Under the pieces are notes generated by a model. The model did not search any database. It had not been told where the DNA came from and saw nothing but the letters and a program-made list of their open reading frames with translations. The position numbers were made by a program, and so were the translations under genes. A DNA stretch of 64,000 bases from Candidatus Obscuribacterales bacterium (lineage in GTDB: Bacteria; Cyanobacteriota; Vampirovibrionia; Obscuribacterales; Obscuribacteraceae), in contig CBDDIJ010000003.1 of assembly GCA_965228855.1 (NCBI GenBank), positions 1,696,001 to 1,760,000 of the forward strand. Reading direction: 5' to 3'. Positions 31,301 to 48,947 of this stretch are shown here, piece by piece; the first letter of the stretch is position 1, and the number at the start of each line of letters is the position of its first letter.

Positions 31301-33375
31301 ATCACGAGGCTGCCGGCAGTGATAAAAATAGAACCGGAATTCTGCCCCGGCGCATCGCCACTGGCGTCGGTGTCAGCGCCGCCGGTTCCAGTATGAGCGG
31401 CCCCGGCCGTGCCGATCTGAATATCACCACCTCTTGCAGTCAGTTCACCGCTGTCAATCCCACCCGTGGAAAGCTTCTTGCTGAACTTGACACTGCCTGT
31501 TCCAACTCCGGCTGTGTCGAAAGTAACCTTCAAATTGGATTGAGTGTTGACCAGGGATATAAAGCCGGCAGCACCACTGCCACCTGACGCGGACACTTCC
31601 GGAGCGATAATGCCCGTAGTATTCTGTGCACCGGCGACGATAGAAACAACACCATTGTCGCCTGTACCGGCACCATCCGCCTTCACGGACTTGACGTCGA
31701 CGACGCCCTTGTCACCATCCTTGTTGGCGAGAGCTATTATAGTGACGTTTCCGGCGTTGCCATTTGCGTTACCGCTAGCATCGACAGAGGTATCGGAGAG
31801 CAATACGCTTCCACCGGTGGTCGATGCTTTGCCGACAGTCACGAACCCTTGTGTGATCTGCCCACCCGGAACAGTGGCTGTAGATTGCGCTTCGGCTCCC
31901 CCGCCTGGTTTGAGCTGGGCGCCGGCAATGATAGTGATATCAAAGGCATCATCACCGGTGTTGCGAGAACTTATGCTTATGGTATTGCCACCGTCTGTGA
32001 TATCACCGCTGGCCAAAATCGCAATCGCTTCATCGAACTGCAGGTTCCCTGTAATCGTAATGTCGCCCGCGTTGTTGAAGAACGTTGGATCGCCGGATAT
32101 CACGCTTTGCCCAATTATCAGGTTATCGGTTGAGGCCCCAATATGAGCAACCCCCGCGGAAACTTTCAGCTCGCCTGTCAGATCGCCGACGATACCGTCA
32201 GCACTTCCGGCTCCAGCATTGACTATAAGTTTGTTAGAGTAGTAGTCACCGCCGCTGAGAAGAACTCCCTCGGATTCACCAAAATTGTTGTTACCGATCG
32301 TGATATCGCCATTGGTGGCAGAGAACGTCCCACCTTGACCATTTATAGCAACAAGTCTTGCAGCGCTTGACGCTTGCAATTGGTCAGCGATGTTTATGTT
32401 ACCTGCCGTTGCACTCATCAAACCGTTATTGATGATGGTGGCACTCTGTAAACTCAGGTTGTTTCCAGCGGTGATTGCCGGCGCGCTACCGTTTTCACTG
32501 ACGTTGAAAATCGTGCCGCCGGCGGTCAGGTTTACATTGCCGGCGCCGGTAATTATCCCGCTGTTTACAATATCCGTGACAGAGTTCAAGTTTAAGTCGA
32601 GCGGATTTGTGCCTGTAGCTATCGAACCCGTAGCGGAGTTGCGGATGTGATTTGCGTTGATCGTTGCAGCAAGAACTGCAGGATCGCTTGCATTCACTAT
32701 CAGATTCCCAGCGTTTCTGAGATTACCGCTGACATTAAGGGTCTGCGCGGAAGTAAAATCTCCCGTCACGGTAACATTTTTAGGGATGTAGAGGCTGCTC
32801 AGGTCTTGAACCGACCCAGCATCCAGGCTCAAACTGCCACCACTAGCGCTACCATTTCTCGCTAGCTTTAGAGTTTGTCCACCCTCCTGCATGACTTGAT
32901 ACACAGCGGCCAGTTCTGCCGCAGTGAGAGTAGAACCGTTCTCAATCTTGACGTTCTGACCACCACGACTAATTGTGACGTTACCTGTCAGATTCGAAAT
33001 AGAGTACGTGTCACGACGTGACCTCAAATTTAAATCAGTTGGAAACTTGGATAAATCGACGGACATTATGCGTCGAGAAGCGCGGTCTGCGGCTTGATTG
33101 GCTTGTAATGCGTTGATTGTACGTGCGGTATCAAACTGCATTCGGTTTTCCATGCGGAGAATCCGGGCTTCGTGCCGAGAAGCCTTATCGCTCATTTGCA
33201 AAACGCGGTCGCTCCGGTCGCGAACTTGTCTATCGCTGTTGAATGCTCTGCGAGTTGCGCCTTGTATAGCGCTCTCGAAGGACTGATTATGGGGAGACGC
33301 AAGAGATGCCTGGGCGGAAAGCGCCAGAGCAGCCAGAATTGCCAAGGCGCCAGCACCCTTCTTGTACTTTTTCAT
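28387..33375 (-). CDS. Giant secreted beta-helix/PGRS-like Gly-rich protein A (1662 aa)
   Basis: ATG at 33375 with GAGGA RBS. Signal peptide MKKYKKGAGALAILAALALSAQASLA, haemagglutinin-like beta repeats and a (GGX)n C-terminal half. Confidence 0.85.
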   Translation of the reverse strand: MKKYKKGAGALAILAALALSAQASLASPHNQSFESAIQGATRRAFNSDRQVRDRSDRVLQMSDKASRHEARILRMENRMQFDTARTINALQANQAADRASRRIMSVDLSKFPTDLNLRSRRDTYSISNLTGNVTISRGGQNVKIENGSTLTAAELAAVYQVMQEGGQTLKLARNGSASGGSLSLDAGSVQDLSSLYIPKNVTVTGDFTSAQTLNVSGNLRNAGNLIVNASDPAVLAATINANHIRNSATGSIATGTNPLDLNLNSVTDIVNSGIITGAGNVNLTAGGTIFNVSENGSAPAITAGNNLSLQSATIINNGLMSATAGNINIADQLQASSAARLVAINGQGGTFSATNGDITIGNNNFGESEGVLLSGGDYYSNKLIVNAGAGSADGIVGDLTGELKVSAGVAHIGASTDNLIIGQSVISGDPTFFNNAGDITITGNLQFDEAIAILASGDITDGGNTISISSRNTGDDAFDITIIAGAQLKPGGGAEAQSTATVPGGQITQGFVTVGKASTTGGSVLLSDTSVDASGNANGNAGNVTIIALANKDGDKGVVDVKSVKADGAGTGDNGVVSIVAGAQNTTGIIAPEVSASGGSGAAGFISLVNTQSNLKVTFDTAGVGTGSVKFSKKLSTGGIDSGELTARGGDIQIGTAGAAHTGTGGADTDASGDAPGQNSGSIFITAGSLVMDGDIKAEGSDGVDGVADGDAGGAGGNGGAISIESTTGGISLANGFSISTDGGDGGNGFDGAVSTGAGNTGGAGGNGGFAGTISFNSAGDISLAGPLSALGGDGGAAGDGSAGANLVAGGGIGGAGGAGGNGAAGGIVSLVSDGGNMIVGDLIRTAGGEGGDGGAGGDGGAGTTGNGGVGGAGGLAGLGAAGGIVFLQTSSTGNITVNGVESLGGDGGNGGNAGSGGGSISGAGGAGGLAGSGGAAGSSRSVTLQTDSGTIALTTGSSIQSLGGFGGDGGDGGTGGTTDNAGAPGVGGNGGAAGAGGSGSTVSLQTSSKAGSITGDLLTSISSFGGLSGDGGDGGDGGDNNNAAAGARGGDGGNTAASGNGGTISIGGASIQLAGGLSTTSLSGAPRAGNGGNGGTSLVGTGGTGGDGGQGAAGPLSGSVTITGGQVDVGAIVVRAVSGADGGSGGAGGDSSGDENGGNGGNAGNGGNASSAGTITISGSSVTADLLVAYGAGGGSGGDGGNGGTVSIGTGDGGDGGSGGRSGAQGAGGFVFVSTKGKTSPDVSIANILAQGGGGSNAGDGGSGGNAASGVGGAGGASGVEGAAARGGTVQISSANNISITGIDVAGGSASFASGGDGGSSSTGTGGSGGLGSNSVSGGAGGTISLVTKKGAISSTGSFLANGGDASTGSSGGDGGDGVTGGAAGDAGVGTTGGAGGSITLSSKKGTTDVNIVTAGGGSGGTGGVGGDGGSGTTGAGGAATKGGSAGVGGAGGVVKFTAALLNANDVSAQGGLGGSGNTGGRGGDATSGTGGAGALGGTGGGGGVGGSITATKFKGNINATNVNASGGAGGVGGTGGQAGDATTGTGGTGGVGGAGGTGGNGGSVNLSTKATVTVTSFASAFGGDGGTGGTGGEGGDPAVIGGDGGNGGNGGAGGGVFTSNVLTNPADVSGGNGGTGGTGGLTGGGDGQEGTAGANGTSSP

Positions 33376-33483
33376 TTCAATTTCCTCGATAGAAAAGTTC
33401 GCTTGGCTCAAAGTACCTCCGCAGTCAGCCCTACGGAGGAGCGACAAAGTCGTGGTTCGAACCAAGAAGTCGATTCGCCTGGT

Positions 33484-33542
33484 AGCTTACTACATAAAAC
33501 ATTTGACTGATCGCAGAGACAATAGGTTGGCTAGGTTTTATC
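33484..33542 (-). promoter_or_regulatory. Putative promoter/operator shared with paralogue B
   Basis: Plus strand AGCTTAC-N16-CTGATCG-N14-TGGCTAGGTTTTATC. The same blocks and spacing recur at 38745-38804. Confidence 0.6.
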
Positions 33543-33658
33543 CTAGGACGAAGGTTTCACGAACCCTTAACAACCGGAAATCTTCGAGCCCGGATTTCAA
33601 GGGAGACGCAGACGGAGAGTCCTCTGGCTCCGTTTCCTTATCCCAAGGTCATCTCGGG

Positions 33659-36600
33659 CTAAGGGGTCACGGTTCCATTGGCGCCATCACTACCGACCGT
33701 TCCGTCCAGTCCATCCGGGTTTCCGATCCCGCCTACACCAAGTGCCCCACCAAGACCACCGCTGGCTTCAACCAAACCGCCGAGCGAATTAGTAGAGGTA
33801 ATGTTGCCGCCGTTTCCGCCGTTGCCACCGTTACCACCATCGCCCGCCGCCGCTGAACCGGATGCGACACCGCCATCACCACCTGTGCCGCCGGTGCCGC
33901 CATCGCCACCCGAAGCCGTCGCGGATCCGCTCACAGTTACGACTGTTTTGCTTCCGAGTTTTAGAGAGCCAGCATTTCCTCCCAGCCCTCCGGTAGCTCC
34001 AGCCGTGCCTTCTGATGGTGCACCACCGGCGTTGCCGCCGTTGCCTCCTGCACCTCCGGCGCCACCAGCGCCGCCGTCAGTTACGATGTTGAAAATCGTG
34101 ATATCACCCTTAAACTTGTCCGCGGTTATTGTCCCGCCGGCTCCACCAGTGCCTCCCTGTGCAGAAGCTCCCGCCTGACCAGCATTGTGATTATTGGAAG
34201 AACCCGCAGCTCCACCAGCGCCGCCGCTTCCGCCAAGACCGCCAATAGCAATCAGGCCTCCCGCGCTTAAACTAGCAGCGGTTACCTTGATAGAACCCGC
34301 GGTACCGCCATTTCCACCAGCACTAGCGTTAGATCCGTTGCCGCCGGTGGCGGAGTCAAACGATGAGCCTCCGGCGCCACCATTGGCGCCGTCACCGCCA
34401 GAACCGCCATTGACATTTGAAGCGTTGATGTTTGCGGTGCCCTTCTTCGCGGAGATCGCCACAGTGCCACCGTCCCCTCCATCGCCGGAAGTTCCAGCGA
34501 GTCCGCCGCTTCCACCAATTGCCGGGAATGCACCAGCGTTGCCACCGTCGCCAGCGCGGCCGGCAGAACCGCCGTATCCACCGTTAGCTCTCGCCACGCC
34601 GGAAACTGTAATACTTCCTGATTTAGAGCTCACCTCGATGACGCCCCCCGCGCCGCCCTGGAGACCGGCAAAACCGTTTCCACCAGCTCCGCCGCTTCCC
34701 AAGCTTGCAGTTCCACCGGCGCCACCACTACCGGTGCCTGAAGCAGCGCTGCCGTCTGCTGCCAGAACCGAGACCGTAACATCGCCTGCGCTTTTTAATT
34801 TGACGGTTCCTCCCTTGGCGGAAGCGCCCACAGTACCGGCATCTCCGCCTCGTCCGCCGGTACCACCGACAGCGTCACCGCCTGTCCCTCCCGTCCCCGC
34901 AGAAGGAATCGAGGTTCCACCGCTTGCCGAAGCAGCAGCTAAAATTGTGATGTCGGGAGCAGTTTTGCCTTTGGTGGAGATGAAGATGAACCCACCGTCG
35001 GCGTTGTTGCCGCTATTGCCACCATTTCCTCCATTGCCTCCATCGATTGATATACCAGCTAGAGCGGAAGAACCATTGCCGCCAGCTCCGCCTGAACCTC
35101 CATTACCACCATCTGCGATGACATTTATCGCTTGAAAGGAGGAAGCGGAAATCTTGATTGTTCCAGCCATTTGAGCATTGCCACCGTTACCCCCCGCGCC
35201 ACCATTACCGGAGCTCGTTGGGTCACCGGAACTATCCGCAGCCGCACCACCCGCACCGCCACTTCCGGCAGATGAACTGGAGGCTAGCACGCTCCCAATG
35301 TTGATTGCGCCACCCGTAATTGTCACCGTGCCGCTAGCGCTAGACGCTCCAGCATTACCGCCGTCACCGCCATTGCCGCTCACGGCACTGTCGCTCACGC
35401 CGCCAGCACCACCGGCGCCACCATTTCCAGACTGTACACCACTGCGCCCCGCGTATAGGACGCCAGGAAGATTTATAGTAGGGCTGGAAAGAATTATAGA
35501 ACCGTTCTGACCACCTTGCAGAGAGTCGCCACCTCTGCCGCCATTCCCGGCGTTACCACTGCCGGCGTCCCCACCTGCGCCACCATCGCCGCCACGTCCG
35601 GAACTGCCGCCGCTCGCGGAAATGGTGCCAACACCAGTTATTGCACCACCCTTCTTGGAGGTCGTTATAGTCACGACGCCGCTTTCAGCACCGGCTCCAC
35701 CGACGCCTCCGGAACCTCCATCACCACCGTCGCCGGAAGGAGAGTTGACTCCGCCCCCTCCGCCAGTGCCGCCCGCACCGCCATCGCCAGCGCTCGAAAG
35801 TAATGCGGTTGCAACATTAATCGTTCCGGTGCCCGCACGCAAATTCAGATCACTAGAAGCTCCACCAGTGCCTCCTGCTCCGCCCTCTCCACCGCCGCGT
35901 CCAGTTCCATTCGCAGAGTCTCCTGAAGTGCCACCGTCACCACCGAGACCTCCGGTGCCTCCTTGTGAGACTACAAGTCCTGAGGAAATATTTCCGGAGC
36001 TGGATGTTTCCAACAGTATGGTGCCGCCTGCACCACCATTCCCACCGTCACCACCAGCGCCACCAGCTCCGCCTGTACTACTTAGACCGACACCACCATT
36101 TCCTCCATGCCCCCCGGCACCGCCAATTGCTCCTTGAGAGATCAAAGTAGAGGTACTGATCGTCCCTCCGCTGGATATAACAGATACCTCAGCGCCTGAA
36201 CCCCCAGCACCACCTGTTCCACCGTTGCCACCATCTGTGCCGGGCACATTGTCTACTCCCGGGCTGCCATTGCCGCCATTCCCACCCTCACCAGCTATAC
36301 TGATTGCGGCTCCGACGGATATGTCGCCAGTGGCGTTCAATATGATGCTACCTGAAGCCCCACCAATCCCACCGTTACCGCCATTTTGAGGACTTGCTCC
36401 GGCTCCGTTGGCGCCATCACCACCTGAACCTCCAATGGCTATGAGTGAACTTGCAGCGGCGTTTATCCCCCCTGAAGTTGCCGTAATAGTGATAGTTCCG
36501 GCATCTTGAGCATCTCCACCTGCGGCACCAGGAATGCTACCAGTCGCTCCGTCGGCGCCATTAGTAACGACAATTCCCGAAATTGAAACGTCGCTTGCGG

Positions 36601-38671
36601 TGATAACAAGATCTCCGCCCTTTTTACCTTCATTTACAGCATTGAGGGATGCCCCACCCCCAGAAATAGCTGCAGATCCGTCGGTCAGCATCGTCAAATC
36701 GCCGCCCAGCGTCACGGTTGTTCCCGTGCTAATACCTCCAGATGCCAGTTTTTTGGATACCTTGATAGCTGAACCGGAGTAGTTACCCGTGCTGTCGAAG
36801 GTGAGCTTGAGTTGCGCCTGGGCATTGATCAGGCTAACAGAGCCTACGGCTCCGGTGCCAGTTCCCTCTATAATGGTGCCCGTTGAGATCGCAACTGCAT
36901 TTTGTCCGCCAGCGATAACGGAAACCGAACCATTGCTTCCGCTGCCAAACCCGAAAGCGTTGATTGTTCCAACATCTACAACACCCTTGTCACCGCTTTT
37001 GTTGGCGAGCGCAATAAGGGTGACGTTGGCGCCAGAACCATTGGCGTTGTTGAAAAGTCCATCATCGCCGCTAGAGTCAATCGTTGAACTCGACAATAGA
37101 ATGCTTCCTCCGGTGGAGGAGACCTTGCCTACCTGGACGAAAGTGCCGCCTGCGATGGGGTTACCAATCGGGACTTGTGAAACAGGGACTGCGCCGTTGA
37201 TTGGTTTCAACGTCGCGCCGGCGATCATCGTTATCGTCTGCCCATCTCCTTCTACAGTTCTAGCAGTAATAGTCTTTGCGGTGCCACCGTCTGTGATATC
37301 ACCACTAGCGAGGATAGCAATCGCTTCTATAAAGGTAAGTGGACCTGTGATCGTGACATCACCACTATCGTTGAAAAATGTCGGGTCGCCAGTAATTACG
37401 CTCTGGCCAAGTTGCAAATTATCAGTAGATGCCCCAATGTGTGCGGTGCCGGCTGAGACTTTGAGCTCACCGGTGAGTTCACCGACAACACCATCAACGC
37501 TACCACTACCGGCGTTGACGATTAACTTCTTCGAAAAGTAATCACCGCCGGAAAGCAAGATGGCGTCGGTAGCACCGAAGCTGTTACTGCCGATTGTAAT
37601 GTCGCCATTGTTGGCCAAGAAAGCTCCGCCCGCTGCATCGATTGTCACCATATGAGGTGCTCCGGCCTGGAGTTGATCGGCAATGTTGATGTTGCCAGTG
37701 GATGCAACAATGGAGCCCGCATTCAAAATAGAGTTAGCTTGCAAGCTCACATTTGAACCCGATATGGAAGCAACAGTCGCTCCAGCCTTTTCAGGCGCAT
37801 TGATTATCGCGCCGCCGGCGATAAGAGTCACAGTGCCACCGCCGGTTATGTTACCGCTGTTAACTATATCTGTCTGAGCTATCAGATTCAAATCTAACGG
37901 ATTGGCTTCGGATGCCGAAGTTGCGATGCTACCTGTCGCCGAATTGCGAATGTGATTCGCACTAACCGTCGCCGCGGCGACCTGAGGGTCATGGGACAGA
38001 ATTACGAGGTTGCCTGCATTACGAAGATTGCCCGAGATGTCGAGTTGGTTCACCGAAGTGAAGTCACCGGTGACAGTGACATTCTTCGGGATATTCAGAC
38101 TACTGAGAGTTCCTACCGTGCCAGCGTCCAGGTTCAATGCGCCACCATTGGCGCTACCATTGTTCTGCAAACTGAGAGTCTGTCCGCCCTGCTGTAAAAC
38201 CTGATAAACAGCAGCCAACTCGGCTGCTGTCAGTTTAGTTCCGTTATCAACCAGGACGTCCTGACCTGCTCTGCTGATCGTGACATTACCGCTTAGATTC
38301 GAAATCGTGTATGAATCGCGCCTCGATCTCAAGTTTAAGTCAGACGGTAAGCGACTGAGATCGACCGATGTAATTCGCCGACTCGCACGCTCCGCGCTCT
38401 GGAAGTTCTGAATTGCTTGAATGGAACGGGCAGTGTCAAACTGCTTGTGGTTCTCCATCCGTATAAGCTTGTTTTCCCGGCGCGACGCTGTTGCACCCAT
38501 GTCCAGAATATTCTGAGCGCGTCCATGTCCACGTTCATTAGAAACTACCTTTCGGCTAGCATTCAGAATTGCGCTGTCAAAGGACTGCGGATGAGCAGAA
38601 GATGATTGAGCGAACAACGCTATGGATGCCAGAACCGCAAAAGTGTACGCACCCTTTTTAAACTTTCTCAT
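33659..38671 (-). CDS. Giant secreted beta-helix/PGRS-like Gly-rich protein B (1670 aa)
   Basis: ATG at 38671 with GGAGAG RBS, signal peptide, and colinear with protein A throughout. Confidence 0.85.
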   Translation of the reverse strand: MRKFKKGAYTFAVLASIALFAQSSSAHPQSFDSAILNASRKVVSNERGHGRAQNILDMGATASRRENKLIRMENHKQFDTARSIQAIQNFQSAERASRRITSVDLSRLPSDLNLRSRRDSYTISNLSGNVTISRAGQDVLVDNGTKLTAAELAAVYQVLQQGGQTLSLQNNGSANGGALNLDAGTVGTLSSLNIPKNVTVTGDFTSVNQLDISGNLRNAGNLVILSHDPQVAAATVSANHIRNSATGSIATSASEANPLDLNLIAQTDIVNSGNITGGGTVTLIAGGAIINAPEKAGATVASISGSNVSLQANSILNAGSIVASTGNINIADQLQAGAPHMVTIDAAGGAFLANNGDITIGSNSFGATDAILLSGGDYFSKKLIVNAGSGSVDGVVGELTGELKVSAGTAHIGASTDNLQLGQSVITGDPTFFNDSGDVTITGPLTFIEAIAILASGDITDGGTAKTITARTVEGDGQTITMIAGATLKPINGAVPVSQVPIGNPIAGGTFVQVGKVSSTGGSILLSSSTIDSSGDDGLFNNANGSGANVTLIALANKSGDKGVVDVGTINAFGFGSGSNGSVSVIAGGQNAVAISTGTIIEGTGTGAVGSVSLINAQAQLKLTFDSTGNYSGSAIKVSKKLASGGISTGTTVTLGGDLTMLTDGSAAISGGGASLNAVNEGKKGGDLVITASDVSISGIVVTNGADGATGSIPGAAGGDAQDAGTITITATSGGINAAASSLIAIGGSGGDGANGAGASPQNGGNGGIGGASGSIILNATGDISVGAAISIAGEGGNGGNGSPGVDNVPGTDGGNGGTGGAGGSGAEVSVISSGGTISTSTLISQGAIGGAGGHGGNGGVGLSSTGGAGGAGGDGGNGGAGGTILLETSSSGNISSGLVVSQGGTGGLGGDGGTSGDSANGTGRGGGEGGAGGTGGASSDLNLRAGTGTINVATALLSSAGDGGAGGTGGGGGVNSPSGDGGDGGSGGVGGAGAESGVVTITTSKKGGAITGVGTISASGGSSGRGGDGGAGGDAGSGNAGNGGRGGDSLQGGQNGSIILSSPTINLPGVLYAGRSGVQSGNGGAGGAGGVSDSAVSGNGGDGGNAGASSASGTVTITGGAINIGSVLASSSSAGSGGAGGAAADSSGDPTSSGNGGAGGNGGNAQMAGTIKISASSFQAINVIADGGNGGSGGAGGNGSSALAGISIDGGNGGNGGNSGNNADGGFIFISTKGKTAPDITILAAASASGGTSIPSAGTGGTGGDAVGGTGGRGGDAGTVGASAKGGTVKLKSAGDVTVSVLAADGSAASGTGSGGAGGTASLGSGGAGGNGFAGLQGGAGGVIEVSSKSGSITVSGVARANGGYGGSAGRAGDGGNAGAFPAIGGSGGLAGTSGDGGDGGTVAISAKKGTANINASNVNGGSGGDGANGGAGGSSFDSATGGNGSNASAGGNGGTAGSIKVTAASLSAGGLIAIGGLGGSGGAGGAAGSSNNHNAGQAGASAQGGTGGAGGTITADKFKGDITIFNIVTDGGAGGAGGAGGNGGNAGGAPSEGTAGATGGLGGNAGSLKLGSKTVVTVSGSATASGGDGGTGGTGGDGGVASGSAAAGDGGNGGNGGNGGNITSTNSLGGLVEASGGLGGALGVGGIGNPDGLDGTVGSDGANGTVTP

Positions 38672-38744
38672 CAATGCTCTCCAGCGTGACAGTCCCAAAT
38701 TTGACGACCGAGCGGACCCGACGCCAACATAAACAAGAATCAGA

Positions 38745-40393: not shown

Positions 40394-42268
40394 TTACTGA
40401 GCATCATATTTTCTCTGAAACTCGGCGAGCTTCGCTGGCATGTGAGTTTTAAGAAATTTTGTCGTTTTCTGAACGTCGTTCTTTGTTGCGGAATTATCCG
40501 GACCAAGCACCATCTTCGATACCAGCGTGGCCCTAATGTAGTGTTCGGCAGCCTCCTCGAACTTTCCTTCATGATGCAGGGCGCTACCTAGTTGCCATTC
40601 TGCCGAAGGAACAAACTCCGAGTCAGCATTCGGATAGAGCTTGTTCACGATCTCTAGCGTTTCCCTGCCGACTTTCTCAGCTTCCGAATACTGACCTAAG
40701 CCCTCCAGTGCCTGCGCCAGACGAAAGAGAGAAGTAACGGTGTAATCATGATACTTCCCAAGTACACGCTTCTTTATTGCCACAGCCTCGCGAGCATGTT
40801 CCAGACCCTGTTTAAACTGGTTTCGTTGATTGTAGATATCGCTCAACCACTCGTGAATAGAACCTCTATCAAAATCCTCGCGGTGTTGAAGATTTGCCTC
40901 CAATGCCTTGTTGAAGAATTTTATTGCAGTATCAAAATTTCCGCTTGTGCTGGAGTGTCTGGCAAAGTCCAGATATATCGCTTCTCTTTGAGCGATCGGC
41001 GCATTGTTTTTCTCTGCGGACCTGACCGCTTTCCAATAGAATGATGTAGCACTTGCAAAATTGTTGGGACCAAGAGACTTCTCGGTAGCGGCTTTGCGCG
41101 AAAGCGCTTCCCACTCATTCGGTAGGAATATGGGCCGAGCAATCGGATAGATGACAACGACGACAGCGGCAACAATTGCAAATACGATAGCAACGACTGA
41201 AATTAAAGCGAGTCTGAATACGCCGATCGATTTTTTCTGACGCCGTAAAACGGGCTTGGCCGAGGGATCTTCGATGCACTGCTTAAAGTCCTCAATTTTT
41301 TGCCAGCGGTCTTCCGGTTTCTTTTCCAAACAGCCTTGAACGGCTCGATGCAGGTTAGGAGGCCATTTGAAAGTAGAAAAATCAGGTGCGTCATTGACGT
41401 GAGACATCAAGGTCTGAAGCGCACTTTCAGACACAAAGGGCGGAAGTCCGGTTAAACATTCGAACGTCACACACCCCATTGAATAGATGTCGGAGCGTTT
41501 GTCAGCCCGCTTACCCAGGCATTGTTCAGGGCTCATGTAATTGGGAGTTCCGAAAACCTCACCGGTTTGCGTCAGATTAGCTTCCTTCTCCTCGTCGACT
41601 AATTTAGCAATACCGAAATCGACTATCTTGGCGGTTTCTTCACCGGCAGAATTTCGAGTAATGATGATATTAGCCGGCTTCAAATCGCGATGTATCACAC
41701 CGTTATCATGAGCGTGCTTCAAGCCATCACACACTTGAGTGATCAGCTTCTGCACACGTTCAACCGGAAGTTTTCCTCCAGCATTATCTATTGCATCCTG
41801 CAGCGAAATACCTTCAACGAAATCCATAACCAGGTACGGACGGTTTTGTTCGTCTTGCCCGAATTCGCGAACCGCAGCTATATTCGGATGGTTCAGGGCG
41901 GTAGCGGTTTTCGCTTCTTGCTGAAACCGCTGAATTCCTTTTGCATGAAGTTGACCACCGTGGATAAATTTGACAGCCACCACTCGGTCAAGGAGAACGT
42001 GGCGAGCCTTGTACACGGTGCTCATGCCACCACTGCCTAGTACGGATAAAATTTCGAAACGCCCCGCGATGGTGGTACCAACTAGTGCCTCTGCATCTCC
42101 AGTATCATCGGGTTCAGGGAATGAGAAGTTATCATTAGTCGCGAATGGATCAACAAAAGGGCTGACAGCAGGCGCCGGTTTTTGAACAGGACCATCGTCA
42201 ACATGATGGGGTGAGCCTTCGACGACAAACTTCAGATGTTCCTGCTGCTTAAGATCTTCGTCACTCAC
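40394..42268 (-). CDS. Membrane Hanks Ser/Thr kinase with extracytoplasmic TPRs
   Basis: GSGGMS, HRDLKPAN, DFG, YMSPEQ, TM segment LALISVVAIVFAIVAAVVVVIY and TPR-like repeats. Confidence 0.94.
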   Translation of the reverse strand: MSDEDLKQQEHLKFVVEGSPHHVDDGPVQKPAPAVSPFVDPFATNDNFSFPEPDDTGDAEALVGTTIAGRFEILSVLGSGGMSTVYKARHVLLDRVVAVKFIHGGQLHAKGIQRFQQEAKTATALNHPNIAAVREFGQDEQNRPYLVMDFVEGISLQDAIDNAGGKLPVERVQKLITQVCDGLKHAHDNGVIHRDLKPANIIITRNSAGEETAKIVDFGIAKLVDEEKEANLTQTGEVFGTPNYMSPEQCLGKRADKRSDIYSMGCVTFECLTGLPPFVSESALQTLMSHVNDAPDFSTFKWPPNLHRAVQGCLEKKPEDRWQKIEDFKQCIEDPSAKPVLRRQKKSIGVFRLALISVVAIVFAIVAAVVVVIYPIARPIFLPNEWEALSRKAATEKSLGPNNFASATSFYWKAVRSAEKNNAPIAQREAIYLDFARHSSTSGNFDTAIKFFNKALEANLQHREDFDRGSIHEWLSDIYNQRNQFKQGLEHAREAVAIKKRVLGKYHDYTVTSLFRLAQALEGLGQYSEAEKVGRETLEIVNKLYPNADSEFVPSAEWQLGSALHHEGKFEEAAEHYIRATLVSKMVLGPDNSATKNDVQKTTKFLKTHMPAKLAEFQRKYDAQ

Positions 42269-42353
42269 GATTTGGTCCTGCTCAAAAGAACTTGGTGATT
42301 CCGTGATTCCGTTCGAACTCGTGCAATCTATCTATTCTAGCGCGCGGAGAAAA

Positions 42354-44120
42354 CTAGTTGCCGCGAGACTCCAATTCTCTTAAGTGTTCGCGAGCCTTCT
42401 CTGCGCGCGGATCACTGCTCGCACAAGCGTTCAAGAACTCATGCAGATTGGAAATTGCGCCGTTTCGATCGCCGTTCTGTTCCATCGCACGGCTCAAATA
42501 GAAGCGGGCATTAGCATCCTTAGGATCTATTTTTACCGCTTCTTTATAGGACTCGACAGCCGGTCCGACATAACCCTGGACAAGTAGAATAGAACCAAGC
42601 GTGGTGCGCGCTGTCACAGATTTATTATCTAAGCGCACCGCTTCCTTAGCCTGCGCGACAGCCTGATTGGTATCACCGGCACGCAGAAGTGCTGCGCTCA
42701 ACCGTTCTCGAAACTCCGATTTTTTCGGATAAAGGTCGACCGCTTCCTGCATGTAACGAACAGCCTCGTCAATTTTTCCAGCAGCAAGCGATTTGCTCGA
42801 CAACGTTTTCAATAAAGAAACGTCCTTTGGATTGATTCTATATGCATTTAGCAATTCATCCAAGCTGGCTTGCTTGTCACCGAGTTTATCTAAAATGCGT
42901 GCATGGTTGATGCGAAACAGCTCATCAGTAGGGCGAATAGCAATGGCTTTCTTATACTGTTCCGCAGCTCCTTGCCAATCGTCCTTCATGGTCAGCGCAG
43001 CACCATAGTCCGCAAGTGCATCCGCGTATTTCGAGTCGGCGGCGATGGCGAGTTTATACTGTTCCAGCGCCTCATCCACTTTTCCATCAGCGACCAGGTT
43101 ACTCGCCTTCAGGTAAGCACCTTCTGCAGAGAGAAACGACGTGACAGAACTTGGCAGATTCGCAACGCGCTCCACCGGCGGTGTTCCGAGCACGAGCGGA
43201 GTTCCCGTCCAGTTTGATTTCATTGCAGGAACTTGCTTCTTCTTCCAGCCGGCAGCGGATGTCTCAGCTTCGGTTTTCTGACGTGCAACGGCGAACGCTT
43301 TATCCAGCGAAATCAAACCGCCCTCCTGTCGAAGCGCGCTCGTCAGATTCTTCGAAAATGCACTGCTCCATGTTATTTCGTTGGGCTGGCTCGAAGACAT
43401 GATTATAAATCCATTGCCCAATGCAACTTTGCTTATATCAAGGTTGTAGGTCTGCGTGAGTGATTTTGCTCCAGACTCGAGTTCAGCCGCACCACTATAA
43501 GCAGATTGCAAAACCAATACGATTCTATCGCTCTTAACGTTCTGCTTAAGCGTCGTCATTAAGGTCTGCATCGAAATGCAAGTTCCATAAATATTGTCCA
43601 GCGCACAGTCATAAGCGCAAAGATATGTATTTCCGTCTGTAGTGGGAAACGCGCTTGTCGCCACATAAACGACAACGAGATCGTCCGGACCAACTCCGTT
43701 TCCCAGAAAGTTCGGACCAATCGCACTCATGATGTTCTGCTTGGAAGCATTTCCATCAAGCAACAATTTCACGTGCGATTTGTCGAATCTACCACCATTG
43801 GGGTCGACCAGGTAATCACAAAACTCTTTGGCCGACTGCGCCATGTCGCTGGCTTCAGCACCGCCGGGAGATAATCGACCTTCTTTGAACTTGGAGGCGC
43901 CAATCACGACCGCCCACTTCTGCTTGACGGGTCTGTTTGTACCTTTCGCGTTGGGATTGAGATCTTGGATCTTGGTAAACTCTACACCGCGCACCGTCTT
44001 TGGTGTCTGAATTTTCTCACCCGTAATTTCATCCTCATCGGCTTGCGCGAACGCGTAACTGCCCTGAAGTGCAAACACTGCCGTCAGCATCAATCTAGAC
44101 AGCCACTGAATACGGTGCAT
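42354..44120 (-). CDS. Secreted caspase-fold (C14) plus TPR protein with substituted catalytic dyad
   Basis: Signal peptide, KWAVVIGASKF, DLVVVYVATSA (His site), IVLVLQSAYSG (Cys site), SAFSKNL, KQVP and about 7 TPRs. Confidence 0.8.
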   Translation of the reverse strand: MHRIQWLSRLMLTAVFALQGSYAFAQADEDEITGEKIQTPKTVRGVEFTKIQDLNPNAKGTNRPVKQKWAVVIGASKFKEGRLSPGGAEASDMAQSAKEFCDYLVDPNGGRFDKSHVKLLLDGNASKQNIMSAIGPNFLGNGVGPDDLVVVYVATSAFPTTDGNTYLCAYDCALDNIYGTCISMQTLMTTLKQNVKSDRIVLVLQSAYSGAAELESGAKSLTQTYNLDISKVALGNGFIIMSSSQPNEITWSSAFSKNLTSALRQEGGLISLDKAFAVARQKTEAETSAAGWKKKQVPAMKSNWTGTPLVLGTPPVERVANLPSSVTSFLSAEGAYLKASNLVADGKVDEALEQYKLAIAADSKYADALADYGAALTMKDDWQGAAEQYKKAIAIRPTDELFRINHARILDKLGDKQASLDELLNAYRINPKDVSLLKTLSSKSLAAGKIDEAVRYMQEAVDLYPKKSEFRERLSAALLRAGDTNQAVAQAKEAVRLDNKSVTARTTLGSILLVQGYVGPAVESYKEAVKIDPKDANARFYLSRAMEQNGDRNGAISNLHEFLNACASSDPRAEKAREHLRELESRGN

Positions 44121-44133
44121 TCTTAATCCTCGA

Positions 44134-45858
44134 TTACTTGCCATGGAAAAGTTCGATAGCAGCTGAAACCATTCCGCCTGCGCTTGTCGACGTCAGCCTC
44201 ACGAGGCTGCTATCGGTCGCTTTGTGGACTTGTGCCACCGCAGAAAAATCATCTGGTATCAAAGCTGGTTCGGGATCGTCCCACGACAGTTTCATACGCG
44301 TGGGGCAAAGGTCCTTGGCACCCGATTCATCTGGCGAGACGAACGCGGTGAGCGTACGATCTCTCAGAGAGTCCGGTGTCACGTCCACTTTTTCAGTGGC
44401 GAACACGAGACCAAGCTGTTCCGTCCCCGGATGTTCATCAAACTGCATCCAGCCGACGGCAGGTATCGGGTAGTCCTGCCCTTTTTTTAAATGATTCTGC
44501 GTTCCGTAGTCATTATTAGGAAACAAAACATCGCTTTTTCCGGTGGTTCCCGCCTTCATCACAAGATAGGCATAACCGTCATTTCCTGGGATGAGATGAA
44601 ACCTGATCGAATCTCCGGACTTAAATTGGGTTTTGTTATTGCAGCGATAGGTTTTTCCATCGCGATAAAGCTCAATCCAGAAGTTGATGCCTTGCGGTCC
44701 ATCAGTCGATGCGATCTTGTTTCTAAAGTCTGACGGTGCAGGCACCGCCGGCAGCGCCGCTATTTGCGCTTTGCGTCGGGACTCTTCCAGCTCCGCATCC
44801 GTAGGGAGTTTCGCTGTAGCATACTCCTCTCTGGATGCCACTACAGGCAGTTTCCCACCTGCTATGACTTTCGTATCGAGGGGGGCGACATTTCGGTCGA
44901 TCCAGGTCGTGACGAATTTCAAGTCATCCGGCTTGAATTGCCCCTTCTCAAAAATCAAGTGTTCGGAATTTTTGCTCAAAACCAGCTGCCGATTGGAGGT
45001 GTTCAAGCGCTCGAACAATTTCCATGTACCGGCGGGGCGAATAAGTTTATCGTTTGTTCCCTGCAAGAAAAGAACAGGAGTGTCTTTGACCATGGCTGCG
45101 GCGTTTAAGTTTTTCGACATGAATTCGTCAAACTGTACGAATTCTTTCGGCGCGAAGTCTGTCCTCATCAACGGATCGTTTTTCCACTCGCTGCGAAGTT
45201 CTTCGTTCAAAGAAATCTTTTGCACCGCAGACAGTGCCACATTGTCCATCTTTTTCCCGTAGCCACCAAAGATGGTGCTCAAGCCAGCCTTGAGTGCAAC
45301 CTTGGCTTCATCACCACTCATGCCGAATCTGTCGCGGGCGGGCACCGCCGCGACAAGTCCATTGATCAAGTCTGGGTAAAATGCACAAGCTCTCAATGCA
45401 ATTGCACCACCCATCGATTCGCCTAGAATAACTACCGGCACGCCTGGATGCTGCTTGCGAATGTACTCCAGTGCAGCTTTGATGTCGACAAGGCATCCGT
45501 CGAAATCCATGCTCGAGGTTTCCGCATTCGTCTTCAACTCACCGAAGCCGCGCAAGTCGATGGCATATGTGGCAATTCCGTCCTTCGCCATCTCTTTGCC
45601 AAACTCGGCATAGCAGCCTTTGTGCAAGCTGAAACCGTGAATGCACAGCAGCGCCACTTTCGGCTTATCATTGGGAAGCCACGAAACGCATTTGATGTCT
45701 TGCGGTTTCGCCGCGGGTGGACGCAAGGTTAGCGACTTTGCACCACTGTTTGCTCCGTCTGAAGACTCAGGAGCGTCTGCTTGTGCAAGAATCGGCTGAT
45801 TAAGACTAAAAACTGAAATAGCTGCAAGCGCGAGTTGTGTAGAAATTTGGATTTTCAT
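44134..45858 (-). CDS. Secreted alpha/beta hydrolase (lysophospholipase-like) fused to a DUF4384-like domain
   Basis: Signal peptide, CIHG, DLRGFG, GESMGG, GTNDKL and SEHL. C-terminal FKSGDSIRF...GYAYLV...VLFP...FDEHPGTE. Confidence 0.85.
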   Translation of the reverse strand: MKIQISTQLALAAISVFSLNQPILAQADAPESSDGANSGAKSLTLRPPAAKPQDIKCVSWLPNDKPKVALLCIHGFSLHKGCYAEFGKEMAKDGIATYAIDLRGFGELKTNAETSSMDFDGCLVDIKAALEYIRKQHPGVPVVILGESMGGAIALRACAFYPDLINGLVAAVPARDRFGMSGDEAKVALKAGLSTIFGGYGKKMDNVALSAVQKISLNEELRSEWKNDPLMRTDFAPKEFVQFDEFMSKNLNAAAMVKDTPVLFLQGTNDKLIRPAGTWKLFERLNTSNRQLVLSKNSEHLIFEKGQFKPDDLKFVTTWIDRNVAPLDTKVIAGGKLPVVASREEYATAKLPTDAELEESRRKAQIAALPAVPAPSDFRNKIASTDGPQGINFWIELYRDGKTYRCNNKTQFKSGDSIRFHLIPGNDGYAYLVMKAGTTGKSDVLFPNNDYGTQNHLKKGQDYPIPAVGWMQFDEHPGTEQLGLVFATEKVDVTPDSLRDRTLTAFVSPDESGAKDLCPTRMKLSWDDPEPALIPDDFSAVAQVHKATDSSLVRLTSTSAGGMVSAAIELFHGK

Positions 45859-46032
45859 GTCGCCCCAACTCCTGAGACCGTCGCCCAGAGCCTCCAAGCA
45901 GTCTCAAGTATACATTATAAGCGGCCTCGCTCCCGCATGTGACGAACTCGTGATTTCGCCGATAAAGTTCGTTGCCGCTTGGAAGCCTTATTGGGTATAA
46001 ACTTATAGATATTTTCTGTGGACCTTGACTAG

Positions 46033-47976
46033 ATGGCAAATTCGACGCACTCGATTGGTTTTCGCCGCTTAATGGACGCGGTCTTGAAGAACGTCAGCGA
46101 GCCTTTGCAGGCAAGGCTTTTCGATACCTGGATAGCTGGAGAGGAGACGCCCGACGCCGGACGGCAGATCGCGACAGACCTCCTCCTCATTGCCACTTCG
46201 CTGCATGTCAAGAAGCAAGGTTTGACTCACGGTCAATATGCATTCCTGGGAGATCTATACGACCATTGCCTGCACAAGGAGCCCGGAGGAACGGTCGATC
46301 AACATAAGAAACGCCTGATCGAACTGGTCACAGAAAACGAATTTTACTGGGAACCACCCATATCTTCGCTTAACTTACTGCGTGGTTATGATGCTGTTTC
46401 AAAAACAACCGTCGCGCCGATGTACAAAGACCTGTTGTTGAAGATCGTGACTGTCACATTGACTCACGTGGAAAAACCGACTGCGACAGACAATCAGATT
46501 CTGTCTGACTACGACCAACTTTGGACAGAAATAGTTACAGCCACGAGAACCCCAGCCAAAAGAGTGCATCCGGACAGTAGTCCGTTGATCGCGGATATCA
46601 ATAGAGCGGTTCTTGAACTGGTGGTTCCCGCTCGAGAAGTTATCAAGGCGGTTGATGAACTTCAGCGCATGCCGGGTTTGAAGGACACGGAAGGTTTTAT
46701 TCGTAAGAGCTTCACCAACTACTGTGCACAAGCGATTCTTGCTGACTCGCATGTAGACCAGAAAGAGCTTGAGCTGTTTTACGATCTCGCGCCGACCCTC
46801 ATGTTCTTTGGCAATCAGGGAAGTATTCAGAATTTGCAAGAGGCTTTTCAACGAGCATCGAAAAATATCGAACCTAACGAAACTCCGCTGCTCGTCAGTA
46901 TTCTCGACATGTACGACAGGTCGATGCACACCGAACTTGGTGCGCGCGCTCGCTCGTTGTATTTCAGACTTGCGAACACTGCATTCAAAGCAGACCACAC
47001 CGTCAGTGCAGACGAGCTGGTATGGCTGGAGAAATTCAAAGAAACGCTTTATCCGCACGAAACTTTAGAGCGTGTTGAAAAACTGGTTTCGGAAGACGGG
47101 ATCGAGAAACTACCTGAAAGACCGATCTTCGGCAACATATCGGTCGAACAGAGTCTTGCGGAACTAAATGCCAGTGTTGGAATGGAACGTGTTAAACAGG
47201 ATATGGCTCAGCTCGTGAATTTCATTAAAGTTCAACAGATGCGTGAGCAGAAAGGACTGCCCGGCTCGGGCGTGCCGAAACATTTTGTCTTTTGCGGTAA
47301 TCCTGGAACTGGAAAAACGTCCGTCGCTAGAATTTTGTCGAACATCTACAAAGCCCTCGGCATATTTAAAAAAGGTCAAATCGTCCAAGCCAGTCGCGCA
47401 GATTTGGTCGTAGAAGGGCATCCGGGTAAGAGTGCAGTGAAAGTCAAAGACTCTTCGTTCGCCGCAATCGGCGGCGTACTGTTCATCGACGAGGCAAATG
47501 AATTGCTGCTGGAGGGTGTTCAAGATCCACAAGGCAAAGAGGCTGTCGAGACACTAGTGAAGGCAATAGAAGATCGACCGGAAACGATTGTTGTAATTCT
47601 GGCTGGGCAGCAGGATAAGATGGAGCGATTTTTAAATTCGAATACCGCACTGAAAACCCGCTTCAACAAAGCGTTCTATTTTGACGACTACTCTCCCGAT
47701 CAGATGATCGAAATCTTTCGGTCGTTCTGCGATCGAGCCGCATTTCAGACCAGTCCCGAAGTCATGCGGCTAGTCAAATCTCTATTCGAACGGCTCCATG
47801 CCGAACGAAGCGGTGGATTCGGTAACGCCAAAGAGGTCAGGCGCATCTTCGAAAACATCATTGGCAACCAGGCAAACCGAGTTATTGCGCTTCTGCCGGT
47901 CAATGAAGAAATACTTTCGACAATTACCGAAGACGACGTACAGCCACTTCTAGCGGGTCTGAGCGTCAGGCAGTAA
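46033..47976 (+). CDS. CbbX/SpoVK/EccA-type AAA+ ATPase with long N-terminal helical (TerB-like) region
   Basis: HFVFCGNPGTGKT, GVLFIDEA, SNTALKTRF and GFGNAKEVR. N-terminal ADSHVDQKE and ADHTVSADE. Confidence 0.85.
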   Translation: MANSTHSIGFRRLMDAVLKNVSEPLQARLFDTWIAGEETPDAGRQIATDLLLIATSLHVKKQGLTHGQYAFLGDLYDHCLHKEPGGTVDQHKKRLIELVTENEFYWEPPISSLNLLRGYDAVSKTTVAPMYKDLLLKIVTVTLTHVEKPTATDNQILSDYDQLWTEIVTATRTPAKRVHPDSSPLIADINRAVLELVVPAREVIKAVDELQRMPGLKDTEGFIRKSFTNYCAQAILADSHVDQKELELFYDLAPTLMFFGNQGSIQNLQEAFQRASKNIEPNETPLLVSILDMYDRSMHTELGARARSLYFRLANTAFKADHTVSADELVWLEKFKETLYPHETLERVEKLVSEDGIEKLPERPIFGNISVEQSLAELNASVGMERVKQDMAQLVNFIKVQQMREQKGLPGSGVPKHFVFCGNPGTGKTSVARILSNIYKALGIFKKGQIVQASRADLVVEGHPGKSAVKVKDSSFAAIGGVLFIDEANELLLEGVQDPQGKEAVETLVKAIEDRPETIVVILAGQQDKMERFLNSNTALKTRFNKAFYFDDYSPDQMIEIFRSFCDRAAFQTSPEVMRLVKSLFERLHAERSGGFGNAKEVRRIFENIIGNQANRVIALLPVNEEILSTITEDDVQPLLAGLSVRQ

Positions 47977-48110
47977 AACTTGGTTTGTAGTCTGAACGCC
48001 GCCTCTCTCGAAATTTAATTGAGCAGAGATATGGGACTGCATATATGTCGCGGTCTGATCGACTATATCTGTAAGAGACGAAGCGAAAGAGAGGCGGTAC
48101 AATCGGTGCC

Positions 48111-48947
48111 ATGAGTTACAGCGCGGCACTGACCGAGACACAAATATTCAGATCGCCCCTCAGGTATCCTGGTGGGAAACAGAAAGCGATGCATCAGATC
48201 GCTCCGATGTTACCTGCCAATGCGAATGAATATCGTGAACCAATGGTCGGAGGAGGCAGCGTTTATTTTCACGCAAGAAGTGTTGGCCTTGCGAACTCTT
48301 ATTGGATCAATGACCTCTTCTCTGAACTTGTCGCGTTCTGGCGATCCACCCAGGACCAGGAAACTTGCTTGCGACTCACGCAGGAACTCGAAGCCCTGCG
48401 AGCGTCGTTCAAATCAGTAAAGGACATAAAGCGCTTTTTTCTCAAGGCTCGAAATGAGAAGGTTAGCGATGACTATCGCGCGGCTTTGCTGTTTTTCTTT
48501 TTCAACCGGGTCACTTTCTCCGGCACTACGCGCGCCGGTGGCTTCTCAGCGGCGGCAAGTCTGCAGCGATTCACGCCTTCATCCATTGAGCGTTTGCATC
48601 CGTTGCCTGCCGCATTGAAAGATACGAAAATTACTTCGCTCGATTTTGAAAGCGTTATAGACGCTCCAGGGAAGGACGTATTCATTTTCTTGGACCCACC
48701 TTATTTCACGGCGACAAGACTCTACGGTCGAAGCGGTGAGTTGCACGAATTCGATCATGCGCGCTTAGCGCAAATTTTGCGCGCAAGCAATCATCGCTTT
48801 CTTGTCACTTACGATGACTGCGAAAAGATCCGCGAGCTTTATTCTTGGGCAAATATCAAACCCTGGGCGCTGCAGTATGGAATGAATAATTGCAATCTGG
48901 CAAACACCAGCAAGATTGGTTCCGAGATTTTTATTTCAAACTACTAG
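48111..48947 (+). CDS. Dam/D12-family N6-adenine DNA methyltransferase, specificity unknown
   Basis: SPLRYPGGK, EPMVGGGSV, INDL and FIFLDPPY. Confidence 0.92.
   Translation: MSYSAALTETQIFRSPLRYPGGKQKAMHQIAPMLPANANEYREPMVGGGSVYFHARSVGLANSYWINDLFSELVAFWRSTQDQETCLRLTQELEALRASFKSVKDIKRFFLKARNEKVSDDYRAALLFFFFNRVTFSGTTRAGGFSAAASLQRFTPSSIERLHPLPAALKDTKITSLDFESVIDAPGKDVFIFLDPPYFTATRLYGRSGELHEFDHARLAQILRASNHRFLVTYDDCEKIRELYSWANIKPWALQYGMNNCNLANTSKIGSEIFISNY

Follow-up and report, generated by a model that had tools for sequence, protein, structure and literature searches.

A lysine-centered caspase-loop motif shared by a pseudo-caspase and a DUF4384-fused hydrolase of Obscuribacterales

Introduction

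Why do a predicted exported hydrolase and a dead caspase, encoded by adjacent genes, carry the same short peptide three times between them? This question is raised by a window of 64,000 nucleotides (the whole stretch of DNA analyzed here) from a Candidatus Obscuribacterales bacterium, G000:C3:1696001-1760000, where G000 denotes the source genome. Within this window, gene A encodes the hydrolase, which is fused to a DUF4384 domain, gene B encodes the pseudo-caspase, which is followed by tetratricopeptide repeats (TPRs), and gene K encodes a membrane kinase with a TPR ectodomain. The original prediction joined these three genes into one extracytoplasmic module, in which an active caspase encoded elsewhere processes A and B and the signal is relayed through the kinase. 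Our analysis suggests that A and B are probably both targets of active caspases of the family. A more specific account, to which we give slightly better than even chances, is that the lipase is controlled by active exported caspases, which cleave A at two residues (K54 and K528) and B at one (K227), with B acting as an adaptor or decoy. Residues are numbered from the TTG start of the open reading frame (ORF) at 45897 for gene A and from the ORF start at 44144 for gene B.

Results

The three peptides resemble a lineage-wide family site

The peptides SGAKSLT, ESGAKDL, and ESGAKSLT occur where the original prediction had placed them (Table 1), and their codons differ, which excludes a DNA repeat as their origin. 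A scan of 6,098 ORFs (2.43 M residues) of G000 returned three matches to SGAK[SD]L, all in A and B, while approximately 0.8 would be expected by chance genome-wide and 0.0004 within A and B; because the motif was picked after the fact, these figures overstate its significance. Of 66 loci, 4 have SGAK at every one of the three sites, and two of these are the window and a near-identical genome; the letter-for-letter identity of the peptides is therefore partly luck on a family consensus. The shorter G-x-K occupies all three sites in 38 of the 66 loci, and the two internal sites both have it in 75 of 77. Enrichment of the motif in secreted N-termini across the proteome did not appear (4 observed, 6.6 in shuffles, under a crude signal-peptide rule that missed B), and a proteome-wide code of this kind was dropped. 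Motif avoidance was likewise not used: G[AS]K[SDG]L occurs 11 times against 22–27 expected and its Arg form 17 times against 26–29, with no deficit of a shorter form.

To which family does the site belong? G000 encodes 13 related caspase-fold ORFs, nine of which have His-Gly and Asp-x-Cys, and eight of these nine carry Lys-[GSA]-hydrophobic shortly after the Cys. Similarly, K[GSA][LMIVF] is located 9–14 residues past the Cys in 80 of 80 active Obscuribacterales caspases, which were retrieved with patterns located outside the post-Cys loop. In five of these 80 caspases, the loop reads GAKGLF, identical to the N-terminal site of stand-alone DUF4384 proteins. As the original prediction supposed, the genome encodes active caspases at other loci; these paralogues have an acidic pocket and match Yca1 and AtMC4 (E 1e-7). 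In a profile-profile alignment, the GAKSL of B falls in register with the loop Lys of the active caspases, in agreement with the position first proposed for it, and it lies in a flexible part of the model with a predicted local distance difference test (pLDDT) score below 50. Taken together, the loop Lys of all 80 active caspases, the register, and the flexibility identify site 3 as the post-Cys loop site of the family.

The other two sites have counterparts in stand-alone DUF4384 proteins, which carry GAK[GA]L just past the signal peptide in 11 of 13 loci (one is truncated and one lacks it) and G[AS]KDL[IV]P in a late loop in all 13. Both DUF4384 sites recur across the 150 best representatives. 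Sites 1 and 2 of A occupy these same two positions, with the hydrolase sitting between site 1 and DUF4384. Pfam DUF4384 is found in 27 of 30 family genomes versus 1 of 120 from the rest of the class. Collectively, the motif appears from these comparisons to be a lineage-wide family site and not private to the A-B locus. The same comparisons bear on the proposal that a trypsin-like envelope protease, and not a caspase, cuts after these lysines. Other DUF4384 genes of the family adjoin or are fused to Trypsin_2 domains, but these proteins form another subfamily with RG[LIV] sites, whereas the motif studied here matches the caspases' own loop; we regard this proposal as very unlikely.

Several further DUF4384 genes were observed. 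The stand-alone GAKGLFF DUF4384 gene of the nearest relative (L079:6311-7120; L-numbers denote loci of relatives, which are mostly Candidatus Obscuribacterales or Melainabacteria) maps exactly to an assembly gap of G000 (C2 end / C3 end), and because of this coincidence the gene is probably present in G000 but unassembled. Directly upstream of the stand-alone gene, L079:3916-6285 and its relatives encode a conserved protein of ~800 aa with DUF4388, a zinc ribbon, a transmembrane segment, and DUF4384, without the motif. Genes of the second subfamily, with an RG[LIV] site past the signal, are located at G000:C3:1046837-1049408 (L001), L326, L327, L330, and L331 and adjoin genes of trypsin-like membrane proteins, some of which contain DUF4384 themselves.

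Gene A encodes a predicted exported lipase with two sites

The domain calls of the original prediction hold for all three genes: Hydrolase_4 and DUF4384 in A, a caspase fold and TPRs in B, and a Pkinase domain, one strong transmembrane stretch, and TPRs in K. A matches PF12146 (Hydrolase_4) with 139 bits and is closest to monoglyceride lipases (E 3.8e-17). Its Ser-Asp-His triad is intact in relatives, with S161 present in 81, D283 in 82, and H313 in 82 of 85 rows, the remainder being gaps. Based on the Pfam match and the triad, A is a monoglyceride-lipase-like Hydrolase_4 protein and a predicted lipid-ester hydrolase. Site 1 resembles the GAKGLF that follows the signal peptide of stand-alone DUF4384 proteins, and G-x-K-x-hydrophobic is retained in 48 of 74 relatives. 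Site 2 is kept more strictly: its G and K are invariant in 85 of 85 rows (query included), K528 remains in 41 of 41 after collapse at 85% identity, with variation at the neighboring loop positions, and this residue is the best-kept of the 44 Lys in A. In L069-L071, the hydrolase, DUF4384, and B-type proteins are encoded by separate genes, which suggests that A arose by fusion. Tandem duplications of the hydrolase-DUF4384 gene ahead of B occur in L095, L096, L099, L102, L104, L106, L111, and L155; in the second copies inspected, the loop site is GKKEV or GSKEI, with G and K retained.

The structural setting of site 2 raises an alternative. The DUF4384 model is a beta-sandwich with a mean pLDDT of 85.7, and the loop of this immunoglobulin (Ig)-like fold that contains site 2 is ordered (pLDDT 81–85), with Asp or Glu always directly after the Lys. 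The sites might then be bound and not cut, or cut slowly, with DUF4384 serving as a canonical-loop inhibitor or bait and B as a decoy, so that the pair damps the caspase or tethers the lipase to the protease. Gene clusters that combine caspases with a serpin and as many as seven copies of DUF4384 fit this alternative, and PCi is a precedent for a neighbor that both inhibits and is cut. (PCi itself was wrongly considered a DUF4384 protein; a preprint likens it to CI-2 inhibitors.) However, no known protease-inhibitor fold stood out when the DUF4384 model was compared by VIA-align, the best hit (Z 7.4, rmsd 2.6, 94 residues aligned) being generically Ig-like. Moreover, sites 1 (a variable linker) and 3 lie in flexible regions, which is typical of cut sites. 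Among solved structures, DUF4384 has no Foldseek match at E 0.001 and no relative by sequence. We consider binding in place of cleavage to be unlikely, though the best of the rival explanations.

Gene B encodes a degenerate caspase that keeps the loop lysine

The caspase fold of B is supported by profile-profile comparison with active paralogues, which aligns 254 columns at probability 100, and by a match to NCBIfam NF047832 at E 7.8e-13, below the family cut-off. The domain scan gave no Pfam C14 match for B itself; its caspase domain alone has no solved relative by sequence, and a fold search with B returned TPR proteins only. Conservation in B was counted over the best 80 loci among 295 confirmed relatives. 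The catalytic His and Cys are replaced with Ser and Ala in B, and none of the 80 loci retains both. The residue before the Cys position is Gln in 52, Glu in 27, and Asp in one of the 80, and the Asp of KDAxDF is missing. Furthermore, the SWE segment is present in 80 of 80 active caspases versus 0 of 80 B proteins, although its assignment to the pocket comes from a weak alignment. According to the accessible text on AtMC4, the acidic pocket of that enzyme comprises Asp137, Ser84, Asp352, and Ser350 (bioRxiv 10.1101/2020.03.09.983940 / PMC5756287). By its sequence, B thus qualifies as a predicted pseudo-orthocaspase with a C14 fold, a replaced dyad, and no acidic S1 pocket. Judged by the AtMC4 pocket, B should not hold Lys, and its own site, if read at all, would have to be read by another protein.

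Nevertheless, the loop Lys persists. K227 is found in 79 of 81 rows (query included) and in 34 of 35 after collapse at 85% identity, while neighboring loop positions drift, and it is the third best-kept of the 44 Lys in B. The expected conservation of the motif among orthologues is therefore borne out for K227 and K528 and is weaker for site 1. These counts also bear on the explanation that no protease reads the sites today and that they persist either for structural reasons particular to each or as relics of an active B ancestor. Five of the 30 relatives closest to an unfused B retain His and Cys, which indicates that B descends from an active enzyme, and both the frequent loss of site 1 and the lack of pairwise co-variation would fit a relic. 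However, K227 is kept in a disordered loop even though none of the 80 loci keeps both catalytic residues, and the same motif is found in two unrelated folds, so that we judge the relic explanation improbable. In L275-L278 and L280, B relatives have His-Gly and Cys but Gln at the pocket Asp; these proteins are possible active caspases of altered specificity.

The A-B pair is conserved and the kinase is a bystander

A DUF4384-bearing gene lies directly upstream of B in 76 of 80 loci; three loci end before it, and one has another gene. B-type genes are present in 83 of 104 family genomes. In the window, A and B are separated by 13 bp as first noted (A stop 44134, B ATG 44120), 85 bp separate the B stop from the kinase GTG, and all three genes are co-oriented. 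These short gaps are what the three-gene relay has in its favor, together with the co-oriented kinases that follow B in 11 of 72 loci: nine are soluble kinases of 320–361 aa from one clade, one is 1,465 aa long, and one is an orthologue of K. This sole orthologue, however, belongs to a 98%-identical locus of a near-identical genome, and the other B-adjacent kinases tested find their best G000 matches in genes other than K. Kinase-like ORFs are abundant in G000 (178, or 2.9% of ORFs). The motif scan found no copy in K, only two of the 178 kinase-like ORFs contain even a loose match, and no kinase accompanies the paralogous A-B pair described below. When 24 candidates per genome were scored, the kinase ectodomain had a match in 12 of 104 genomes, versus 83 for the B type, and in 9 of 9 other, distant genomes with both, the two matches are on different contigs. 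The synteny of the original prediction thus stands for A-B and falls for the kinase. Collectively, these results lead us to reject K as a third member; K is a bystander, and the module has two genes, not three. Relay of A/B processing into the cell by the TPR kinase is the least credible of the explanations considered.

Scans for promoters and terminators gave chance-level counts (8 versus 7.8 and 12 versus 8.5, respectively). The signal peptide listed for A was called from sequence and a crude script rule, without a dedicated predictor, and that of B from sequence.

Table 1. Features of the locus (window coordinates; the complementary strand is shown as -)
Feature	Position	Strand	Remarks
Gene A: signal peptide, motif, monoglyceride-lipase-like alpha/beta hydrolase, DUF4384 Ig-like domain	44134..45858	-	574 aa from ATG 45858
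Likely signal peptide of A (predicted)	45784..45858	-	Sequence and crude rule
Site 1 of A, SGAKSLT (K54)	45727..45747	-	~16 residues past the signal peptide
Hydrolase_4 domain of A, triad S161-D283-H313	44950..45666	-	Pfam and alignment
DUF4384 Ig-like beta-sandwich of A	44137..44703	-	Pfam and structure model
Site 2 of A, ESGAKDL (K528)	44308..44328	-	Loop between two strands of DUF4384
Gene B: signal peptide, pseudo-caspase, TPR superhelix	42354..44120	-	NCBIfam, profile-profile match, model
Degenerate catalytic His site of B, ATSAFPT in place of S[ST]HGSP	43641..43661	-	
Degenerate catalytic Cys site and pocket Asp of B, LQSAYSG in place of LDACHSG	43491..43511	-	
Site 3 of B, ESGAKSLT (K227)	43455..43478	-	Post-Cys loop
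Gene K: Ser/Thr kinase, transmembrane segment, TPR ectodomain	40394..42268	-	Domain scan

Related gene sets and caspase clusters

Comparable genes lie elsewhere in G000. A paralogous A-B-type pair with the sites DGAKTM, NGAKDL, and GGGKAK lies at G000:C3:528575-532182, just downstream of a dnaK-like gene (judged from its N-terminal sequence), a position that recurs in many relatives. A third, more divergent set at G000:C3:2284086-2287941 comprises a hydrolase without DUF4384, a gene of 258 aa, and a pseudo-caspase-TPR gene with the loop GLKTA. At G000:C3:597692-601796, an active caspase is encoded directly upstream of a hydrolase.

In relatives, A, B, a stand-alone DUF4384 gene, and an active caspase are found together in three loci. 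In L323 and L324, A-B is divergent beside a stand-alone DUF4384 gene and an active caspase-TPR gene, and in L126, A, B, a stand-alone DUF4384 gene, and an active caspase all lie within 12 kb. The caspases linked to A-B in L323 and L324 have their best G000 matches at C2:2127326-2129182 and C3:1599529-1602150. Large clusters in L066 (G020:C12), L068, and L317-L322 encode exported caspases, up to seven DUF4384 proteins, and DUF4384-caspase fusions; these clusters also encode a serpin with SRDL past the signal (L066) and a kinase with GTRSLF in its ectodomain. In these clusters, the caspase loops mostly have A-R-[GAD], A-R-[DSN] is frequent at the DUF4384 sites, and Lys forms are intermixed. This Arg/Lys pattern is loosely compatible with one common site whose basic residue switches between Lys and Arg.

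Elsewhere in the window, a divergent AAA ATPase gene and a D12-class adenine methyltransferase gene occupy 46033-48947, and the ORF list places two tandem Gly-rich exported proteins of ~1,690 aa and one adhesin-like protein of 3,330 aa at 28387-38698 and 53161-63153.

Discussion

We infer cleavage of A and B, the direction of control, and any A-B contact from the conserved sites and their setting. In the account that we favor, G-[AS]-K-[SDG]-L would be the recognition site, with Lys at P1, of exported Lys/Arg-type caspases of Obscuribacterales, and the active caspases would carry it in their own post-Cys loop for self-processing. A would be an exported lipase/esterase with one site ahead of the hydrolase and one in a DUF4384 loop, while B would be a dead caspase that, although unable to hold Lys itself, has retained the loop site. 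An active caspase from another locus may engage and cut these sites. Cutting would remove the N-terminal piece of A, open DUF4384, and switch on or release the hydrolase. B may act as a dedicated adaptor or decoy that brings the protease or holds it off, in a manner similar to cFLIP.

Several observations weigh against cleavage by active caspases. First, the sites themselves are imperfectly kept: site 1 is absent in 26 of 74 relatives, the B site is altered or lost in some relatives, including the G000 paralogue (GGGKAK), and the ordered loop around site 2 is also compatible with a structural or inhibitor role. Second, both sites of A lie outside the hydrolase domain, unlike those of LcHydrolase, so activation by cutting is not obvious. 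Third, physical linkage to a protease is rare: an active caspase lies within 6 kb in only three of the 80 B loci, and a DUF4384 gene lies within 6 kb of an active caspase in none of 80. Fourth, the Lys/Arg agreement within clusters is loose, with AKD sites beside ARG caspases, and flanking letters do not co-vary within A-B pairs (Fisher p 0.65-0.76), with no sign of pair-specific co-evolution of the motif flanks. This lack of co-variation is expected for a lineage-wide site read in trans and not for a private code; equally, it lends no support to direct pairing. Finally, STKG occupies a comparable position after the Cys in yeast Yca1; to our knowledge, this is not a known cut site.

A broader view, which we put forward tentatively and hold to be less probable than the cleavage itself, is that a single Lys-based site serves a whole network of exported caspases in Obscuribacterales. 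The family-wide dead caspase B, as a bacterial analogue of cFLIP, would bind active caspases and steer them to a DUF4384-tagged lipase zymogen. DUF4384 would then be a portable caspase-control tag, and caspase activity would be coupled to envelope lipid hydrolysis outside defense islands. If true, the logic of the caspase-activated hydrolase would extend from cytoplasmic phage defense to conserved, exported proteins in which the caspase partner is dead. Very few bacterial caspases have known natural substrates and sites. With three exact residues (K54, K528, and K227), nine candidate proteases in the same genome, and a lipase read-out, the pair makes this question, and that of the roles of pseudo-orthocaspases and DUF4384, testable in vitro.

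Comparison with known systems

DUF4384 has been described, in the accessible part of the report, as the C-terminus of some Csx30 substrates of the type III-E CRISPR protease Csx29 (bioRxiv 10.1101/2022.08.17.504292). As proposed for A, DUF4384 is thus located on a substrate of a caspase-like protease; unlike A-B, the same text describes a CHAT protease, a cytoplasmic cut that frees a sigma-factor module, and a link to CRISPR. The LcCaspase of Lysobacter capsici cleaves the zymogen of an alpha/beta-hydrolase at two R|G sites, as far as the available text of the preprint reports (Evans et al., bioRxiv 10.1101/2025.11.14.688446). Similar to A-B, an alpha/beta-hydrolase gene there adjoins a caspase-fold gene, and the hydrolase protein has two conserved basic-residue sites (R|G there; K|S and K|D here). 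In contrast, that neighbor caspase is described as active, with cuts inside a 33 kDa hydrolase and cell death, whereas A-B has a dead neighbor, predicted export, sites that flank the catalytic domain, a fused DUF4384, and a family-wide distribution. Compared by description, A-B falls outside the LcHydrolase-LcCaspase type, with no active caspase alongside and with K-based sites before the domain and in DUF4384. PADLOC defense models gave nothing for A and one weak TPR match for B.

The animal protein cFLIP-L is a dead caspase that keeps a loop cleavage site and tunes an active caspase; it is Asp-specific and cytoplasmic. B is likewise a dead caspase with a loop site, but it is bacterial, its site is Lys-based, and it is predicted to be exported; by analogy, B may form a heterodimer. 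Among metacaspases, AtMC4 holds the linker Lys225 in its acidic pocket, and AtMC4 and MaOC1, so far as the accessible text goes, have an acidic pocket, Lys/Arg at P1, and activation by self-cleavage after the p20 domain (bioRxiv 10.1101/2020.03.09.983940, PMC5756287), features that are also predicted for the active caspases of this family. The loop Lys of the Obscuribacterales caspases is much closer to the Cys (9–14 residues, versus Cys139 to Lys225 in AtMC4), and B lacks both the dyad and the pocket. In the portions available, reports on cyanobacterial pseudo-orthocaspases describe YS, YN, and QC types with DUF4384 among the accessory domains and do not mention the loop motif (PMC6426788, PMC8283722). 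Like B, these proteins are dead C14 domains kept beside active paralogues; B differs from those described there in its S/A substitutions, TPR tail, fixed hydrolase-DUF4384 partner, and retained loop site. A literature search, which left subscription journals mostly outside, found nothing on this motif, the A-B pair, or caspases of Obscuribacterales. DUF4384 substrates and pseudo-orthocaspases have thus been described before, and what appears to be new relative to known systems is a dead-caspase partner that shares a caspase loop site with a DUF4384-fused predicted lipase.

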